DNA from: a virus
Length of the DNA: 12,500 nt
Virus genome (UHGV): UHGV-1789045
Strand: one strand, 5' to 3'
The notes under the pieces are model-generated. The model was not told where the DNA came from. It did no database searches and worked only from the letters and a program-made list of their open reading frames with translations. Within the stretch, counting starts at the first letter, position 1. Each line of letters opens with the position of its first letter. Positions 2,410 to 10,551 of this stretch are shown here, one piece after another. The position numbers and the translations under genes are program-made.

Positions 2410-3117
2410 TTATGCCGCCTGTTTTAGTTCGTTAACTCTGATGTTCATTACCTGAACGCATTTAGCCTGCGCCTCCTCGTTGCCAGCCATTAATTGCCAG
2501 TCACGCTGATAACGCTCGATGAGTTTTTTCTTGTCAGTTTCTGTTGACGCATAATCGCTGAAGTCTTTCAGGATTTGTTCGCAGTCAACCGATGGAGATT
2601 TCTGGTTGGTATTTTCTGGTGATGGTTTGTTATCTGATGCTGGGATTGCCCATCCCGGAAGCGATGGAGGGAGCCAGTAAAATCCTGTTCCATCTTTCAG
2701 TTTTGCCCTGTGCCATCCCTGCTTTTTATCGAGAGATGTTTGTGCGAAACCTTCCTCAAGGTTATACAGATACCGACCGATTCCCCATTGAACGGCAGCA
2801 CGCTTCATTGCACCGGAACGACCACCTTTGACGGCTTCTACCTGCGTGTTTTCAGCAGCATCCCATTTGGTTACCCATTCGGAATCAATCTTGATTGATA
2901 TGCCGCATTCAACTCCGCCGTTGTTGGGAATATCGCGGTATTCATTGCGCCATCCTGCTTTGCCGCAAACATCGTCCAGGCGTTTCATGATTGCCCGGTT
3001 CGTGACATAAGCCAGCACCATAGCCCACACTTTGCCATCGCGTGTTTTACCGCTTTGCTGTATTCGCCATTCGATATCTTCAGGGCTGAATGGCTCATCG
3101 AATTTGTTCAAATCCAT
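2410..3117 (-). CDS. single-strand annealing recombinase, Rad52-family core with Erf-like C-terminal tail
   Basis: 235-aa ORF immediately upstream of ssb. The segment GKVWAMVLAYVTNRAIMKRLDDVCGKAGWRNEY fits the Rad52/Sak-type SSAP motif. The C-terminal tail ...YASTETDKKKLIERYQRDWQLMAGNEEAQAKCVQVMNIRVNELKQAA resembles my recollection of the P22 Erf C-terminus (memory only). Confidence 0.7.
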   Translation of the reverse strand: MDLNKFDEPFSPEDIEWRIQQSGKTRDGKVWAMVLAYVTNRAIMKRLDDVCGKAGWRNEYRDIPNNGGVECGISIKIDSEWVTKWDAAENTQVEAVKGGRSGAMKRAAVQWGIGRYLYNLEEGFAQTSLDKKQGWHRAKLKDGTGFYWLPPSLPGWAIPASDNKPSPENTNQKSPSVDCEQILKDFSDYASTETDKKKLIERYQRDWQLMAGNEEAQAKCVQVMNIRVNELKQAA

Positions 3118-4129: not shown

Positions 4130-4429
4130 TCAAATAAGTGGTTTGCTGCCTAATTTCATTTTCTGGCGACCAACACAAGTCACACCCATTTCACTGCGTG
4201 GCTTGCGGTAGTAAATACGGTTCTGTTTACGCTCGACTTCTTCTGCCTTCTTGCAGCGAAGGCTTCCGAGTGATGCTGCTTTATCTGCTCTGACGCAACC
4301 AGAGAGCTTTAGCGCAATTTTTCGCGCCAGTCGCTGCTCTTGCATTGCCTGTTCACGTTGAGCCTGTCTGCGTGCTCTGCGGCGATTTCTGGCGTTATCG
4401 TCAGCCAGATATGTAATGACTACTGTCAT
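4130..4429 (-). CDS. N: N-type transcription antitermination protein
   Basis: 99-aa ORF with GGAGG RBS. N-terminal arginine-rich motif DNARNRRRARRQAQREQ, as in lambda N and P22 gp24, the boxB RNA-binding peptide. Located downstream of pL and nutL. Confidence 0.8.
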   Translation of the reverse strand: MTVVITYLADDNARNRRRARRQAQREQAMQEQRLARKIALKLSGCVRADKAASLGSLRCKKAEEVERKQNRIYYRKPRSEMGVTCVGRQKMKLGSKPLI

Positions 4430-4535
4430 GTTGACCTCCGATGATTGACTTTGGCGGTGACGCGCCGGGTGCTTATCTTCCGATTGCCGTCGTGCAGCTG
4501 CACTTCACGTCACCCCAAAGCCAACTACTCTTTGG

Positions 4536-4579
4536 TTCCCGCATTTCGGCGGGACAATCCCATCAATGTTAAAGAGCCT
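4536..4579 (-). promoter_or_regulatory. nutL (boxA + boxB) N-utilisation site
   Basis: On the minus strand, boxA GGCTCTTTAACA (plus coordinates 4568-4579), then boxB hairpin CCCGCCGAAATGCGGG (4538-4553). The boxB 16-mer is identical to the one in nutR at 6235-6250. Confidence 0.75.
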
Positions 4580-4623
4580 GCCAATCTTTTCCGTTTGGCT
4601 TCCAGCTTCCTGCTGATGGCTAA

Positions 4624-4652
4624 AGAATACTGTAGGTATTTTATTGTGTAAA
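4624..4652 (-). promoter_or_regulatory. pL early-left promoter (candidate)
   Basis: Minus-strand -35 TTTACA (4652-4647), 17-bp spacer, -10 TATTCT (4629-4624). Both hexamers overlap operators OL1/OL2. Same -10 hexamer as the candidate pR. Confidence 0.5.
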
Positions 4653-4710
4653 TACCCAAGGTATTTATTTTTGGTGAAATAATGATAAGCAAATGAATAC
4701 AAAGGATATT
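4626..4710. promoter_or_regulatory. OL operator set: three 15-bp AATAC-N5-GTATT repressor-binding sites
   Basis: AATACtgtagGTATT (4626-4640), AATACccaagGTATT (4651-4665), and the degenerate AATACaaaggATATT (4696-4710). Same dyad as the OR sites at 5936-5975. Confidence 0.6.
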
Positions 4711-4796
4711 TATTTTTTCGGTGTCTGCTTGTTCAGTGCTTTTTATGCGGGATATGTGAAGTGGATCCCGATAGCTATTGCTGCCGGGATTATAGG

Positions 4797-5165
4797 TTAG
4801 TCAGCGAAGGTTAAGACGAGAATTACCTTAATGATGTCTGCTACAACAGACACGGCCATAGATAAACCAAAGACGATCCAAGCCACAGTGATGTCTTCAC
4901 TACCATCGTATAGAGTTCCGTAATCACTGGTGTAAGGCGTAAATGTCGCGCCTTGATACAATAGGTATAAGCTTGATCCATAGAGGATAAATGCAGATAT
5001 CCCTTGTATTGCTATGATCACCAGAATCATGAAACGAGCTGATCTATGCGCCCAAGCCTGGCTTATTTTTTCTGATAGAGATTTCGCAATAAAAGCATGC
5101 GCTAAGCCGTAAATTGTCGAGATTGCCAACATCCCAAAAAAGCTTGCTATAGCGGTTCCAACCAT
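4797..5165 (-). CDS. small polytopic membrane protein (3 predicted TM helices), co-transcribed with cI; candidate superinfection-exclusion / abortive-infection protein
   Basis: 122-aa ORF starting 18 nt after the cI stop on the same strand. Three hydrophobic stretches (approx. residues 4-26, 46-70, 95-119). Sits where lambda has rexAB. Confidence 0.7.
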   Translation of the reverse strand: MVGTAIASFFGMLAISTIYGLAHAFIAKSLSEKISQAWAHRSARFMILVIIAIQGISAFILYGSSLYLLYQGATFTPYTSDYGTLYDGSEDITVAWIVFGLSMAVSVVADIIKVILVLTFAD

Positions 5166-5183
5166 AAGCGCCCCCTTGCGTGA

Positions 5184-5900
5184 TCAAACCAGTCTGAGTT
5201 TTGTCTCAATTGCAACGCCTATAATCTTGCAGTTTCCATTGATTGGCACGAGAGGCCATGCAGGATTAAGTCCCTTGAGGTATTTATTTCCGCCGTCGAT
5301 TATCAGCTTCTTGAATGTTGCTTCGTTAGAGTCAGAAAGTTTTGCTATGACCAAGCTGCCGTTGATCGCCTCCCTTCCGGTATCGAAAAGAACGAATGTT
5401 CCCTCTGGAATGCTTAACCCAACCGGTGCCGTCATTGAATCACCTTCCACTTTAAGCCAGAACGCATTACCTTGAATATGCGCGTCAGACTCAAGCCAAA
5501 CATCTATGTCTTTAATGGTGTATGGTTCGCATGCTTCACACCACGAGCCAGCCTGGATACTGCTTAACACCGGATACCTCTTTCCTGCTCTGTATTCCCC
5601 TGCATACCTTACGTTGGCATCGCTCTTAAGGCTTTCTGCCTGTTCTGCAACCTTGGCAGCAATTGACTGGCTAAAATCAGCAATTGAGACTTGCAACAAT
5701 CGTGCAAAACCAGATGCGACCTCAACGTTTAGCGCGTTTCTGCCATTAAGATAATGCCCTACCGCTCCTTGGGTGATACCCAGTTCATCAGCGATTGAGT
5801 ATTGGGTTATTCCCAATTCTTTCTTTTTTGACTCATACAAAGCCTTAAGCCGCTTAGCGTCTTCGAGCTGTTCTGTCGTCAGTGATTTTTTATTTTCCAT
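5184..5900 (-). CDS. cI: CI-type prophage repressor (lambda-cI-like HTH N-domain + LexA/S24 autocleavage C-domain)
   Basis: 238 aa. N-terminus KKSLTTEQLEDAKRLKALYESKKKELGITQYSIADELGITQGAVGHYLNGRNALN closely parallels lambda CI. C-domain FWLKVEGDSMTAPVGLSIPEGTFVLFD...ATFKKLIIDGGNKYLKGLNPAWP...NGNCKIIGVAIETKL matches the P22 C2 / lambda CI S24 peptidase fold, with Ser in GDSM and Lys in FKKL. Confidence 0.95.
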   Translation of the reverse strand: MENKKSLTTEQLEDAKRLKALYESKKKELGITQYSIADELGITQGAVGHYLNGRNALNVEVASGFARLLQVSIADFSQSIAAKVAEQAESLKSDANVRYAGEYRAGKRYPVLSSIQAGSWCEACEPYTIKDIDVWLESDAHIQGNAFWLKVEGDSMTAPVGLSIPEGTFVLFDTGREAINGSLVIAKLSDSNEATFKKLIIDGGNKYLKGLNPAWPLVPINGNCKIIGVAIETKLRLV

Positions 5901-5936
5901 AGCTTAATTCTAATAGCTAAGGTACTTAAACTAAAA
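5901..5936 (-). promoter_or_regulatory. pRM-like maintenance promoter for cI (candidate, near-leaderless)
   Basis: Minus-strand -10 TAGAAT (plus 5912-5907) about 6 nt upstream of the cI ATG at 5900; weak -35. Overlaps OR3 and abuts OR2, the same architecture as lambda pRM. Confidence 0.35.
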
Positions 5937-5975
5937 ATACCCTGAGTATTGATTGCCTTGAATACCTGTAGTATT
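5912..5975. promoter_or_regulatory. OR operator set: OR3 (degenerate), OR2, OR1
   Basis: AATAGctaagGTACT (5912-5926, degenerate), AATACcctgaGTATT (5936-5950), AATACctgtaGTATT (5961-5975). Centres spaced 24-25 bp. Confidence 0.65.
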
Positions 5976-5977
5976 CT
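5949..5977 (+). promoter_or_regulatory. pR early-right promoter (candidate)
   Basis: -35 TTGATT (5949-5954), 17-bp spacer, -10 TATTCT (5972-5977) overlapping OR1. The cro RBS GGAGA lies about 20 nt downstream. Confidence 0.5.
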
Positions 5978-6006
5978 TTGTTCATGGTTAATAACGGAGA
6001 GTGCAT

Positions 6007-6201
6007 ATGATTCGAATGACACTTGCCGATTACGCCAAAATCCATGGACAGGCTAAAGCAGCCAGTGACTTTGGTGTAATCCAGTGCGCTATCAGCAAGG
6101 CCATTCTGGCAGGCCGTAACATTATGGTTACGGTAAAGCCTGATGGCAGTGTGATTGGAGAGGAAGTTCGTCCTTTCCCAAGCAACAAGAAAAACAAATA
6201 G
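6007..6201 (+). CDS. cro: Cro repressor (lambda-Cro-like)
   Basis: The track ORF starts at GTG 6001. ATG 6007 has GGAGA 6 nt upstream and gives [64 protein letters not shown], collinear with lambda Cro ([66 protein letters not shown]). Confidence 0.85.
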
Positions 6202-6207
6202 TAACAC

Positions 6208-6252
6208 CGCTCTTTAACAGTCATGGTCCTCATTCCCGCCGAAATGCGGGAA
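6208..6252 (+). promoter_or_regulatory. nutR (boxA + boxB) N-utilisation site
   Basis: boxA CGCTCTTTAACA (6208-6219), matching the lambda/rrn boxA consensus. boxB hairpin TTCCCGCCGAAATGCGGGAA (6233-6252). Lies between cro and cII as in lambda. Confidence 0.8.
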
Positions 6253-6309
6253 TACAACGCGCATAAGTTGATGCGCATAACTTCTTATTTGTTAAGGAAA
6301 TACTTACAT

Positions 6310-6588
6310 ATGCAACTTACAAGTACTCGCAAGAAAGCGAATGCAATTACAAGCAACATCCTGAATCGAATTGCTGTACGTGGTCAGCGAAAGGTTGCCG
6401 ACGCGTTAGGGATTAATGAATCGCAAATTTCGCGATGGAAAGACAGCTTCATCCCCAAAATGGGAATGCTTCTTGCTGTTCTTGAATGGGGTGTTGAAGA
6501 CGAGGAGTTGGCGGAACTGGCTAAGAAAGTAGCCAGAATGCTGACAAAAGAAAAAGCCCCGAAGAACGGCGAATTCTTCGAGGCCTGA
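6310..6588 (+). CDS. cII: CII transcriptional activator
   Basis: The track ORF begins at 6223. ATG 6310 (RBS AAGGAA) gives [79 protein letters not shown]..., which aligns with lambda CII (…[26 protein letters not shown]…). Confidence 0.85.
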
Positions 6589-6622
6589 TGTAGAAAGACT
6601 GGATCAATCCACAGGAGTCATT

Positions 6623-6769
6623 ATGACAAAACAACTCAGTCCTTACCAGGACAAAATTCACAAACACATACTACGTGATCGCTTCCTGTCCAGCTTCAAG
6701 CAGCCTGGTCGATTCCGGGCTGAGTTGGAAAAAGTGAAGCTGATGCAGAAGGAGAAAGGTCATGAGTAA
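6623..6769 (+). CDS. small hypothetical protein, 48 aa, between cII and O
   Basis: ATG 6623 with RBS AGGAGT 5 nt upstream. Translation [48 protein letters not shown]. Its 3' end overlaps the O start (6762) by 8 nt. Below the ORF-track size cutoff. Confidence 0.4.
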
Positions 6770-7622
6770 TCTTGCAACCGTAACACATTTAAGGCCTTCA
6801 CAACGGCCTGTGGAGCGTCGTGTGGCAGAAGTTGAAGATGGTTATACCCGTCTTGCAAATGCCCTGTATGAAGAGCTTATCGGCGCAGATTTAACGAAAA
6901 ATCAGAGCAAGGTTGCCCACGCCATATGCCGTAAAACATACGGCTACGGTAAAAAGATGGATCGCATCTCTGATAGTCAGTTAGCTCAAATTACCAGGCT
7001 GCCAAGACAGAAGGTAAACAAGGCCAAGAATGAGCTTATCGCGATGAAGGTTATCCTTCGCGAAGGCCAGCAAATCGGTCCTAACAAGAACATCGAAGAA
7101 TGGCAAATCGAAGGGTGTCACTACTCTGGTGATAATGTCACTACATTGGTGACAAAAAGTGTCACCAACACGGTGACAGCGCTGTCACCAAAACAGGGAC
7201 ACACAAAAGAAACTATTACAAAAGAAAAAAGAAATAATAAAAACACTATGTCCGAAAGTGTTCGGACGGAGTGTGAAAAATCACCTGACCGTCACGAAGA
7301 AATCGACAAGGCATTCGAGGAAATATTCTGGTGTGCAGGCATGCGGAAAGCCGGGAAGAAAAACGCAGCTTCGGCATTCAGAACACAGTTCAGGGAATGG
7401 CGTAAAACTACCAGGGGTACGGCAAGCGAGTTTGCCACGATGCTGGCAGAAGACATCGCATGCAGGAATGGTAAGCAGTTCGGATTCGACAGGTTGTTAC
7501 CATCGAGCTACCTGAACGGTCAACGCTGGAACGACGAGAAGCCAGAAACTATTCAACCACAATCCAAACCATCATCCGCAATCACCGTATCGAAAACTGG
7601 CTACGTGTTTTTCGACAGGTGA
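6762..7622 (+). CDS. O: replication initiator protein O (lambda-O-like N-domain, divergent C-domain)
   Basis: 286 aa. The N-terminal segment [75 protein letters not shown]...GPNKNIEEW parallels lambda O. The iteron origin is embedded in the linker-coding region. The C-terminal domain is not lambda-like. Confidence 0.9.
7113..7250. repeat. origin of replication: four GTCAC-type iterons followed by an A-rich tract, inside the O gene
   Basis: Iterons with internal dyads: ggTGTCACtactctgGTGAta, aTGTCACtacattgGTGACA, aGTGTCACcaacacgGTGACAg, gcTGTCACcaaaacagGGACAc (about 7113-7202). They are followed by aaaagaaactattacaaaagaaaaaagaaataataaaaac (about 7205-7245). This is the layout of lambda ori. 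Confidence 0.65.
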
Positions 7623-7625
7623 ACC

Positions 7626-7733
7626 ATGAAATCAAAAATCAAATCGCTACTGGTCGCTGGTTATAACCACGGCTGGTTAAGTATTTCGTTTGTCGATTTC
7701 TGGTTTAAAAATCTCAATCTGAGGGAATCATGA
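7626..7733 (+). CDS. small hypothetical protein, 35 aa, between O and the helicase gene
   Basis: ATG 7626, 3 nt after the O stop. Translation MKSKIKSLLVAGYNHGWLSISFVDFWFKNLNLRES. Its stop overlaps the helicase ATG. May be a real coupling ORF or just the helicase leader. Confidence 0.3.
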   Translation: MKSKIKSLLVAGYNHGWLSISFVDFWFKNLNLRES

Positions 7734-9610
7734 CGCCAAGTGAACTCAGCGACCTGCTTTGGTCGCAGGTTGACAGGGTGGCTCCGCACCTGTTGCCAAA
7801 CGGCAAGAAAGAGGGGCATGAGTGGGTTGCCGGTAACGTTAACGGTGACAAGGGAAACAGCCTTAAGGTCAACCTTAGCGGCAAGAAAAAATGGGCTGAT
7901 TTCGCTGAGGGAGACGGCGGTGACATGCTTGATTTGTGGATGTCATGTCGTGGAATTAATCTGCATCAGGCTATGCAGGAAGCGAAAGCATTTCTCGGTA
8001 TCAAGGATGACGATCACCATTTCGATGCCAAACGTGAGAAGAAATTCTCCAGACCTGATCGCAAGAAAATCGCCCGCTACGTTACCAGAACAGAATCCCA
8101 TCTTGAGTACCTGCAATCGCGTGGCATATCGCCAGAAATCGTAAAGCGCTACGAGGTTGTCAGCGGCAAGGTGTGGAATGGAGAGCGGGAACTGGATGCT
8201 CTGGTGATTCCGTACAAACGCGATGGTGAGTTGTTGCAGGTCAAGCGAATCAGCACTGAGCGCCCGGACGGGAAGAAAGTCATTATGGCAGAAGGTGATT
8301 GCGAACCTTGTCTGTTCGGATGGCAGGCTCTGGACGCTGGCGTGAGGGCGGTTGTACTTTGCGAAGGCGAAATTGATTGTATGAGCTATGCGCAATACGG
8401 CATCTCGGCGTTATCCGTGCCGTTTGGTGGAGGGAAAGGCGCTAAGCAACAGTGGATTGAGTTTGAGTATCACAACCTCGACAGGTTTGAGGAAATATTC
8501 ATCTCGATGGACGTTGATGATGTTGGTCGTGAAGCCGCAAGGGAAATCGCAAGCCGACTCGGTGAACATCGTTGCCGTCTTGTTACTCTGCCGTACAAAG
8601 ACATCAACGAATGCCTGATGAACGGTGTTACCGAGGATGAAATCTGGCAGTACATCGGCACGGCATCCTACTTCGATCCTGAAGAACTCTACAGTGCGCG
8701 AGAGTTTTACCAGGACACTATCAACGCTTTCTACGGCAAGCAGCAGTATCTGTTTAATCCACCGTGGGAATCTCTGGCAGATAAATTCCAGTTCCGTGAG
8801 GCAGAGTTGACGCTGGTCAATGGTGTGAACGGTCACGGAAAAACGGAGGTTGTCGGGCATATGGCACTTGAGGCAATGCGTCAGGGTGTGAAGACGTGCA
8901 TCGCGTCACTTGAGCTGAAGCCAGGCATTCTCCTTAAGCGACTTACCCGTCAGGCAACGTGCTGCAAGATGCCGCCAGTGCTGGAAATTGACTCTGCATT
9001 TAAATTTTATGACGAAAGACTTTGGGTGTTTGGCCTGACCGGAACGGCGAAAGCCGACAGGCTGATCGAAATATTCGACTACGCTCGCCGCCGATACGGG
9101 ATCCAGTTATTCATCATCGACAGCCTGATGAAATGTGGCATAGGCGACGATGACTATAACGGGCAGAAGGCGTTTGTTGACTCGATTTGCGACTTCAAAA
9201 ACAAAACAAACTCCCACGTCATTCTCGTTACTCACTCGCGAAAAGGAGACAGCGAAGAAAAACCAACCGGGAAAATGGACGTAAAAGGCTCTGGAGCGAT
9301 AACAGACCTGACAGACAACCTTTTCATCATCTGGCGTAACAAGGCTCGCGAGAGAGCGTTACAGAGAGTTCAGAGTGGTGAAAAGATGTCAGAGAAGGAC
9401 GAACAGCTACTGGCATCTCCGGCATCTGTTTTGATGCTTGAAAAACAACGTAACGGCGAAGGTTGGGAAGGTGGTGTCCCGTTGTTCCTTGACGAGCAAT
9501 CGCACCAGTTCCTGCAACTTGAATCAGGATCGCCATATAGCTACATCGCCAATATGCCGAAATCGGAATATGACGAGGCGTGGCGACAGGAAAACGTGAC
9601 GGAGTATTAA
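7730..9610 (+). CDS. bifunctional Toprim primase / RecA-fold (DnaB- or gp4-like) replicative helicase
   Basis: 626 aa. Toprim motifs VVLCEGEIDCMS and ISMDVDDVGREAA. Walker A LVNGVNGHGKTE, Walker B QLFIIDSLMK, and ILVTHSRKG. Takes the place of lambda P downstream of O. Confidence 0.85.
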   Translation: MTPSELSDLLWSQVDRVAPHLLPNGKKEGHEWVAGNVNGDKGNSLKVNLSGKKKWADFAEGDGGDMLDLWMSCRGINLHQAMQEAKAFLGIKDDDHHFDAKREKKFSRPDRKKIARYVTRTESHLEYLQSRGISPEIVKRYEVVSGKVWNGERELDALVIPYKRDGELLQVKRISTERPDGKKVIMAEGDCEPCLFGWQALDAGVRAVVLCEGEIDCMSYAQYGISALSVPFGGGKGAKQQWIEFEYHNLDRFEEIFISMDVDDVGREAAREIASRLGEHRCRLVTLPYKDINECLMNGVTEDEIWQYIGTASYFDPEELYSAREFYQDTINAFYGKQQYLFNPPWESLADKFQFREAELTLVNGVNGHGKTEVVGHMALEAMRQGVKTCIASLELKPGILLKRLTRQATCCKMPPVLEIDSAFKFYDERLWVFGLTGTAKADRLIEIFDYARRRYGIQLFIIDSLMKCGIGDDDYNGQKAFVDSICDFKNKTNSHVILVTHSRKGDSEEKPTGKMDVKGSGAITDLTDNLFIIWRNKARERALQRVQSGEKMSEKDEQLLASPASVLMLEKQRNGEGWEGGVPLFLDEQSHQFLQLESGSPYSYIANMPKSEYDEAWRQENVTEY

Positions 9611-9925: not shown

Positions 9926-10132
9926 ATGACAAATCAGCAGCAAATAGAGTTCATCCTTGAGCAGATTAGAAAAATGCGAGAAAAGAACCAGCCAGACATG
10001 ATGGAAATATGGAGACGCCAGCAGGAAGAATACCGCAAGCATATTTTTGGTGAGAGAAAACAGGATGACTGGAGCCTATATGGCTATGGCACCAGGACAA
10101 ATAAAAACGGATATAGCCTTTACACATATTGA
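9926..10132 (+). CDS. hypothetical protein, 68 aa
   Basis: The track starts at GTG 9920. ATG 9926 has AAGGAG 5 nt upstream. Product MTNQQQIEFILEQIRKMREKNQPDMMEIWRRQQEEYRKHIFGERKQDDWSLYGYGTRTNKNGYSLYTY. Confidence 0.5.
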   Translation: MTNQQQIEFILEQIRKMREKNQPDMMEIWRRQQEEYRKHIFGERKQDDWSLYGYGTRTNKNGYSLYTY

Positions 10133-10140
10133 GGAATTCC

Positions 10141-10551
10141 ATGAAACAGACAATTTTCCTCAGGAGTAAGCAACAACAGCAAGCCGCAATCACCGCCATC
10201 CTCGCAACACCACTCGATAAAGACAAGCCAGTTACCATCCGCATTACTGACTACAAGCGCAACCTTGACCAGAACGCAAAATTTCACGCGATGCTGGCGG
10301 ATATCGCAAGTCAGGTTCAATGGTGCGGCAAATGGTTAAAACCAGAACAATGGAAGGTTTTGTTGATAAGCGGTCATGCAGTGGCAACAAAGCAGGAAGC
10401 TGATGTTTTGCCCGGCCTTGAAGGCGAATACGTCAACATTCGCGAAAGCAGCGCGCAGATGAGCGTGAAGCGTATGGCAAGTCTGATCGAGTACACAACA
10501 GCATGGGCTATTGGTCAGGGTGTCAGATTTACCGACAGGAGGTACGAATGA
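10141..10551 (+). CDS. ninB: NinB (Orf-family recombination mediator)
   Basis: The track begins at TTG 10129. ATG 10141 (RBS GAGG) gives [21 protein letters not shown]...[36 protein letters not shown]..., collinear with lambda NinB (…RNRSLDQNRKLWACLGDVSRQVEWHGRWLDAESWKCVF…). Confidence 0.85.

Follow-up and report, generated by a model that had tools for sequence, protein, structure and literature searches.

The replication genes in a 12,500-nucleotide (12.5-kb) stretch of the virus genome UHGV-1789045, hereafter the window, form a 2849-nucleotide (nt) cassette in which a lambda-type initiator, O, is followed by a gene of only 35 codons and by a primase-helicase of the type of phage T7 gene 4 protein (gp4). 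Comparison of this cassette with its relatives yields a single new lead, namely that the short tail at the very end of O, and not the O C-terminal domain, seems to choose the helicase partner. The cassette as a whole probably combines lambda logic for finding the origin with T7 logic for building the replication fork, a mechanism all of whose steps we infer. The genes of the cassette, and the parts of O on which the argument turns, are as follows.

6762–7622, + strand: O-type replication initiator gene, 286 amino acids (open reading frame (ORF), Pfam Phage_rep_O, identity to lambda O)
7302–7538, + strand: globular C-domain core of O (residues 181–259, ending ...RWNDE; conserved core in the homologue alignment, PHROG)
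7578–7619, + strand: C-terminal tail of O (residues 273–286), the proposed primase-helicase docking peptide (conserved and partner-tracking)
7626–7733, + strand: conserved 35-codon gene (PHROG 21848, E=4e-26)
7730–9610, + strand: superfamily 4 (SF4) primase-helicase gene of the bifunctional T7 gp4/Twinkle type, 626 amino acids (Pfam Toprim_2, AAA_25 and DnaB_C)

The initial annotation, made from the letters of the window, had described a mosaic module with a strongly lambda-like O N-domain, iterons and an A-rich tract inside the O gene, an O C-terminal part unrelated to that of lambda, a next gene encoding a 626-residue Toprim protein fused to a RecA-fold helicase with Walker A and B motifs in place of a DnaB loader, and a 35-codon ORF translationally sandwiched between the two. 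All of this anatomy is borne out by the searches reported below.

The similarity between the window O and lambda O stops abruptly at about residue 157, and ~130 residues of the window O remain, for which BLASTP found no similarity to lambda O and hhalign gave a probability of 0.1. Searched alone, the C-domain matched no family in Pfam, its profile found nothing meaningful among Protein Data Bank (PDB) sequences, hhalign detected no relationship to E. coli DnaT, and a single-sequence protein search returned mostly partial, near-identical proteins. It matches PHROG 33384 and PHROG 270, the latter being the wider family. In the AlphaFold2 model of O, three C-domain helices are predicted at low confidence and residues 235–286 are unstructured. 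Homologous C-domains, 37–55% identical, occur in initiators with a variety of downstream partners: a primase-helicase in Fraca and CharmingMan, a DnaC-like loader in Pseudomonas phage Skulduggery and small proteins of unknown kind in Vibrio phages. In other loci, initiators with a C-domain of this family precede lambda-P-like loaders. Judged by these comparisons, the globular C-domain is a generic module and is not specific to the primase-helicase.

The tail was compared with the downstream partner across 80 IMG/VR loci, 79 of them untruncated, that share this globular C-domain, and the two sort together in the following way.

Primase-helicase partner, 36 loci: tails ..GYVFFDR, ..GLVFY or ..GYVYY
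Primase-helicase partner of the Fraca type, 20 loci: tail ..EVFISQAAIDRMKRGANRP
Lambda-P-like partner, 6 loci: tail ..GKVRVVDRDCEVVL in five; L178 ends differently
DnaC-like partner, 5 loci: acidic/aromatic tails ..PEWALEDENDDEKSD or ..PDWAKDWV

The primase-helicase-type tail was seen in none of the 22 same-domain loci without a primase-helicase; it does occur in two more loci whose contig ends before a complete primase-helicase gene could show. The reverse comparison began from the partner, by scanning one genome per species for primase-helicases and examining the gene directly 5′ of each. Orthologous primase-helicases (34–99% identical) were found behind initiators with Phage_rep_O, HTH_36, DUF1376, Lin1244_N or unclassified N-domains, and the Enterobacterales loci alone hold at least three different initiator middle domains. 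Upstream of these orthologues the tail is kept behind three different middle domains (C-terminal residues IQVSQSGYVFIN in L107, IQVTKSGYVFIN in L112, GITVSESGLVFLD in L102 and SITVSKNGLVFY in L117), and the initiator of L098 likewise joins a different middle domain to the tail type of the window O. A scan of viral contigs for the alternative 'KYAFEGNVIRLN' middle domain returned one locus. Even distant gamma- and alphaproteobacterial initiators have ends such as ..LAGVVYI, ..LMAGVI, ..AWAGVL and ..QEWGVL, and the pattern G[YLVAP][VIL] is present within the last nine residues of 33 of the 47 initiators lying directly 5′ of a primase-helicase, compared with 14 among 697 control ORFs of those loci (p=3e-35).

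The tail is by codon comparison conserved at the protein level, with 282 synonymous and 96 non-synonymous pairwise differences in its four G-x-V-F codons across 17 distinct DNA versions. Conservation as a Shine-Dalgarno sequence for the 35-codon ORF was considered and rejected, because of this synonymous variation and because the tail is kept without the ORF (L102 and L117, as also L104). In the model of O, the tail falls in a low-confidence and apparently disordered stretch. The double dissociation, in which the same domain carries different tails with different partners and different domains carry the same tail with the same partner, makes the last ~12 residues of O the best candidate for a partner-specific contact to the primase-helicase. 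It is quite possible, if somewhat short of an even bet, that this reflects an exchangeable C-terminal 'address' peptide which selects the helicase system (T7-type primase-helicase, lambda-P-like loader or DnaC-like loader) independently of the DNA-binding and globular C-domains. More speculatively, the peptide might dock on the zinc-less ribbon domain of the primase-helicase described below. The initial annotation had instead proposed that the O C-domain co-evolved with the helicase. One part of this stands, since the 35-codon ORF and the primase-helicase follow the O C-half in 80 of 80 IMG/VR loci where that half is at least 94% identical to the window's; the other part shifts from the globular domain, which is unspecific, to the tail, which tracks the partner.

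Several observations weigh against this reading of the tail. The 20 Fraca-type initiators are linked to a primase-helicase and have a different end. Lambda O, which binds P, ends in ..DWIYGVDL, loosely like some of the distant tails, so the short motif is not uniquely diagnostic. In a rough tree built by the unweighted pair group method with arithmetic mean, the primase-helicase-linked C-domains form approximately one clade, and part of the correlation between tail and partner could therefore reflect common descent; some co-inheritance is also expected from adjacency alone. An alternative, which we consider unlikely, is that the tail has some other role, such as making O oligomerise, serving as a protease degron or binding a host factor, and that the primase-helicase is recruited through the globular C-domain or loads itself on the unwound A-rich tract. 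That lambda O has a short, hydrophobic, Gly-containing end with a different partner would agree with such a role, as would the near-single clade of C-domains and the fact that the tail-helicase contact is proposed from sequence comparison. However, the same globular domain ends in a different tail for each class of partner (primase-helicase, P-like, DnaC-like and unknown), the primase-helicase-type tail survives replacement of that domain, and a generic degron or oligomerisation signal is not expected to track the downstream gene.

The 35-codon ORF is, on the evidence of its codons, a real gene under purifying selection, and it is coupled in translation to both neighbours, with its ATG 3 nt past the O stop and its TGA overlapping the primase-helicase ATG (ATGA). 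Its homologues have exactly 35 codons in 26 of 26 distinct sequences, at identities down to 46%; compared in pairs, they differ 4144, 2679 and 5966 times at the first, second and third codon position, a third-position bias, and 38% of the differing codons are synonymous in this frame versus 11% and 7% in the other two. The protein has the consensus MK..hK.LLhAGYNHG.L...FV..WF..L.LR. and, besides the 80 close loci, its ORF is found in the majority of Enterobacterales loci, also where the initiator has another middle domain. Such selection, fixed length, coupling to both neighbours and wide presence speak for a second alternative, that initiator and primase-helicase are joined by the 35-residue protein and not by the O tail, with the small protein serving as adaptor or loader in the manner of a miniature lambda P. 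We think this decidedly unlikely, as the ORF is absent from L102, L104, L117 and L106/L108, where the tail and an orthologous primase-helicase are kept, and from every primase-helicase locus that is more distant; some prophages have an HNH endonuclease gene between it and the primase-helicase, and helicases of the T7 gp4 type load themselves. In L169, the intervening gene (4463–4957) is homing-endonuclease-like, of the NUMOD4/HNH_3 type and 164 amino acids long, and breaks the ATGA coupling; a similar insertion of ~490 bp is present in L011, L019, L022 and L078.

At the other end of O lie the origin-binding domain and, inside the gene, the elements of a lambda-type origin.

6819–7103, + strand: predicted N-terminal winged-helix origin-binding domain (residues 20–114; PF04492 and AlphaFold2 model)
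7116–7134, 7136–7154, 7160–7178 and 7183–7201, unstranded: four putative iterons (inverted repeat TGTCAC-N6-GGTGACA)
7202–7245, unstranded: A-rich tract (70% A, 82% A+T)
7243–7274, unstranded: inverted repeat with 14-nt arms (ACACTATGTCCGAA / TTCGGACGGAGTGT), 86% complementary, at the right edge of the A-rich tract

The N-domain matches the full Phage_rep_O model (PF04492, positions 1–95 of 95) at residues 20–114 with E=1.2e-37, and BLASTP aligns about residues 1–157 with lambda O at 48% identity (E=1e-41). The AlphaFold2 model has helices and strands at residues 27–107 with moderate confidence, and full-length O matched no PDB sequence. Each iteron is 19 bp long with 0–2 mismatches to the consensus, and this pattern gives 12 strand-matches in the window where 2.8 are expected, a number reached in none of 200 shuffles. 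In the alignment with lambda ori the iterons occupy the same positions while differing in sequence (the lambda iterons are of the ATCCCTC..GAGGGAT type), and the A-rich tract matches that of lambda almost base for base. The tract presumably serves both as the DNA-unwinding element and as the place where the N- and C-terminal halves of O recombine. A fifth site resembling the iterons (GGTAACGTTAACGGTGACA, with 2 mismatches) occurs at 7832–7850, in the 5′ part of the primase-helicase gene, and could be due to chance.

The domains and motifs of the 626-residue protein are laid out along its gene as follows.

7817–7942, + strand: zinc-ribbon-like N-terminal region (residues 30–71) without Cys/His zinc ligands (homologue alignments)
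8354–8617, + strand: Toprim domain (residues 209–296) with the metal-binding residues CEGEID, DVDD and KDINE
8792–9511, + strand: RecA-fold SF4 helicase domain (residues 355–594; DnaB_C/AAA_25)
8822–8845, helicase motif: Walker A, GVNGHGKT (residues 365–372)
8903–8920, helicase motif: H1a, ASLELK
9107–9127, helicase motif: Walker B, LFIIDSL (residues 460–466)
9227–9244, helicase motif: H3, VTHSRK
9278–9316, helicase motif: H4, DVKGSGAITDLTD

Among PDB sequences the protein matches T7 gp4 (E=2.7e-23) and Twinkle (E=6.5e-14), and Foldseek with its model returned the same two (Twinkle, E=2e-21; T7 gp4, E=5e-20) over 500–620 columns, with template modelling scores that are low because the domains are differently oriented. 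No similarity to lambda P was found, and its only Pfam matches are Toprim_2, AAA_25 and DnaB_C. By homology, then, the protein is a relative of T7 gp4 and Twinkle and not a helicase loader. Of its helicase motifs, H1 (Walker A), H1a, H2 (Walker B) and H3 are conserved. The order of domains is that of T7 gp4 and Twinkle (N-terminal ribbon, Toprim, linker, SF4 RecA-fold helicase), whereas T7 gp4 has a Cys4 N-terminal zinc domain and an arginine finger and the window protein has neither.

Whether such a protein primes as well as unwinds bears on the claim of the initial annotation that the phage brings its own helicase and primase. The helicase part of that claim agrees with the homology to T7 gp4 and Twinkle, and the Toprim centre is intact, with CEGEID, DVDD and KDINE aligning with the T7 gp4 catalytic residues TEGEID, DMDE and KDANE; the primase part is left as plausible only, with all four zinc ligands missing. 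Primase activity is likely, given that the catalytic centre is intact, and template recognition by a zinc-less primase may be unusual. All members of the proteobacterial prophage clade, at identities as low as 34%, have the four ligands replaced, whereas distant homologues in Firmicutes and Bacteroidetes keep CxxC...CxxC. For this reason it could be argued that the protein is a helicase only, its primase module inactive or repurposed, and that the host DnaG does the priming. Metazoan Twinkle, which is among the best structural matches, is a relative of this kind, lacking primase activity and with its N-terminal domain degenerate. According to Wickner (1984; as cited in PMC8022706), the helicase gp12 of phage P22 works together with the DnaG of its host. 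We nevertheless find a helicase-only protein improbable: the Toprim E, DxD and D are invariant among relatives 60–99% identical to the window protein, and the zinc-less region is among the most conserved parts of the protein and lies within a confidently folded stretch (residues 1–90, modelled as a small beta-ribbon and helices with a predicted local distance difference test (pLDDT) score of 82–90), which points to a retained function rather than decay.

Two further features of the primase-helicase are recorded here. The protein ends in a conserved acidic tail (residues 603–626, 9536–9607; YSYIANMPKSEYDEAWRQENVTEY), modelled at low confidence and with an aromatic last residue, which resembles the polymerase- and SSB-binding tails of T7 gp4 and SSB and may contact host polymerase III or the phage SSB. 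In Stx phages and a number of prophages (phi24B, L002 2996–5902, and also L040, L046, L084, L119 and L120) the orthologous protein is 968 amino acids long and holds a 342-residue intein in the Walker A loop (junctions GVNGHGK|ACPLN...VATHN|TEVVGH); the window primase-helicase has no intein.

Taken together, these parts suggest how the cassette would work. The rightward early operon would express the initiator, the 35-residue protein and the primase-helicase, with the translation of all three coupled. The winged-helix domain of O would bind the four iterons in its own gene and destabilise the A-rich tract in the way that lambda O does, a step we propose because of the 48% identity to lambda O and the position-for-position match in origin anatomy. 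Lambda then recruits a complex of P and DnaB; here, the C-terminal part of O would instead recruit the phage's own hexameric SF4 primase-helicase, through the last ~12 residues on their flexible linker and with the three-helix domain as a generic module, and no separate loader would be expected, as with T7 gp4. The helicase would unwind, the Toprim domain would prime and host DNA polymerase III would extend; no phage DNA polymerase gene was seen within the 12.5-kb window. With a self-loading primase-helicase of its own, the phage should replicate independently of host DnaB, DnaC and DnaG. Some points count against this scheme. Both AlphaFold2 models are modest to poor (mean pLDDT 67 for the primase-helicase and 51 for O), the 35-residue protein might be the true adaptor, and in H4 the arginine finger of T7 (DLRGSG) is replaced by an invariant lysine (DVKGSG). 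No zinc ligand is left in the zinc-binding domain, and since T7 gp4 needs this domain for template recognition, the primase function may be altered or lost.

That the cassette is a discrete mosaic unit with sharp boundaries is strongly supported by comparison with its neighbours among the phages. Phage HK620 is 98.5% identical to the window over 4238–6769 and then not at all until 9611, one base past the primase-helicase stop codon; both boundaries thus coincide with gene ends. The HK620 flanks are 92–98% identical to the window's, and the same slot is occupied there by a DnaB-like helicase and by an O unrelated to that of the window. A second joint lies inside O at the A-rich tract, where Shiga toxin (Stx) phages begin to match from ~7238 and Salmonella phages from ~7189. 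In the 80 loci that share the O C-half, the N-halves are of at least four types: that of the window, two other Phage_rep_O types (47–55% identity) and an HTH_36 type. In one natural prophage hybrid (L170 3501–4355, protein P0267), nt 1–467 of the O gene match lambda O at 100% identity, ori-lambda iterons included, and nt 422–855 match the window O at 99%; the slot of the 35-codon ORF and the primase-helicase come next. Hybrids of this type were found on 14 contigs, with the crossover in the shared A-rich tract, and the classical hybrid in which the N-half defines the origin and the C-half the partner has therefore been made by nature.

The cassette is an already catalogued alternative lambdoid replication module, its arrangement is not new and, being so well catalogued, it offers little novelty in itself. 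Phages Sf101 and mEp043 carry it over its entire length at 98% identity; the figure is 91% in SEN22 and 88%, from about the fourth iteron, in Salmonella phages ES18 (over 85% of the cassette), epsilon34 and g341c. That Sf101, mEp043, ES18 and epsilon34 are deposited as complete phage genomes speaks for the viability of phages with the cassette, and 297 of 5426 complete E. coli genomes (~5%) contain the cassette. In the GenBank record of ES18, gp59 already bears a note of similarity to lambda gpO and contains a feature called 'similar to lambda ori', gp60 is given as unknown, and gp61 is a 'putative primase/helicase; similar to phage T7 gene 4'. The phi24B 'P' was described in 2012 as a TOPRIM and GP4d helicase protein with an intein (PMC3430580), and among the Eru replication types of Stx phages many modules are not of the O/P kind and some combine a primase with an HTH_36 protein (PMC8044961, PMC8951638). 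A study of how the cassette works was not found in the literature searched.

Its relatives share some of its parts and differ in others. ES18-type phages have the same three genes in the same order with a different Phage_rep_O N-domain (47–48% identity) and therefore different iterons. The Stx phages phi24B and Min27 share the O C-half, the 35-codon ORF and the primase-helicase at 97% DNA identity from ~7238, whereas their O begins with an HTH_36 N-domain and a Gly/Ala-rich repeat linker in place of Phage_rep_O. HTH_36-type O proteins with the same C-half (P0178, P0181 and P0230) range from 243 to 300 amino acids because the GGAGAAR repeat of the linker occurs in different copy numbers; the number of iterons carried by that part of the gene probably varies accordingly. 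Lambda has the homologous O N-domain (48%), four in-gene iterons and the A-rich tract; its O C-half is unrelated, and its partner is the DnaB-hijacking loader P where the window has a primase-helicase. P22 (gp18/gp12) and HK620 (O/P) are lambdoid phages that encode, behind an O-like initiator, an SF4 helicase of their own in place of a loader, as here; that helicase, however, is DnaB-like and without a primase domain, and the initiator C-termini differ from that of the window O. Finally, the window enzyme would serve a lambda-type, protein-defined origin with host polymerase III (itself inferred), whereas T7 uses a dedicated phage polymerase.

The window as a whole comes from the early region of a coliphage or prophage of the lambdoid, HK620/P22-like kind. 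Its make-up is typically mosaic, with no one phage record matching more than half of it, and its other genes include the following.

1140–1433, leftward strand: Abc2 anti-RecBCD gene
1936–2409, leftward strand: SSB gene, the product ending in the canonical ..DDSDIPF tail
2410–3117, leftward strand: Rad52-family annealing protein gene
5184–5900, − strand: cI
6001–6201: cro
6223–6588: cII
6623–6769: DUF2740 gene, 48 amino acids (PHROG 1913, oddly labelled 'tail protein')
3′ of the cassette: DUF7301, NinB (10129–10551), Rha/KilAC antirepressor-like genes and others

The 3′ end of the DUF2740 gene overlaps the O start codon by 8 nt, and the gene, common to HK620 (hkaW), lies outside the swapped cassette. 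Two further proteins without a Pfam match are encoded on the − strand: a 159-residue Cys/His-rich, HNH-like protein (CxxC...HHCDY...CxxCH; 1447–1926), whose gene adjoins ssb, and a 122-residue hydrophobic protein (4797–5165), just past the 3′ end of cI, where HK620 has hkaS.

The gene arrangement changes nothing in the general picture, since swapping of replication modules among lambdoid phages is known and this cassette has been labelled in GenBank since the ES18 record. The same cassette drives the replication of the class of Stx2 phages that includes phi24B, Min27 and several O157 prophages. The pattern in which the tail follows the partner provides a concrete hypothesis for how modular initiators may be rewired to different helicase systems, and the natural lambda-O hybrids are ready-made domain swaps with which this tail hypothesis could be tested.

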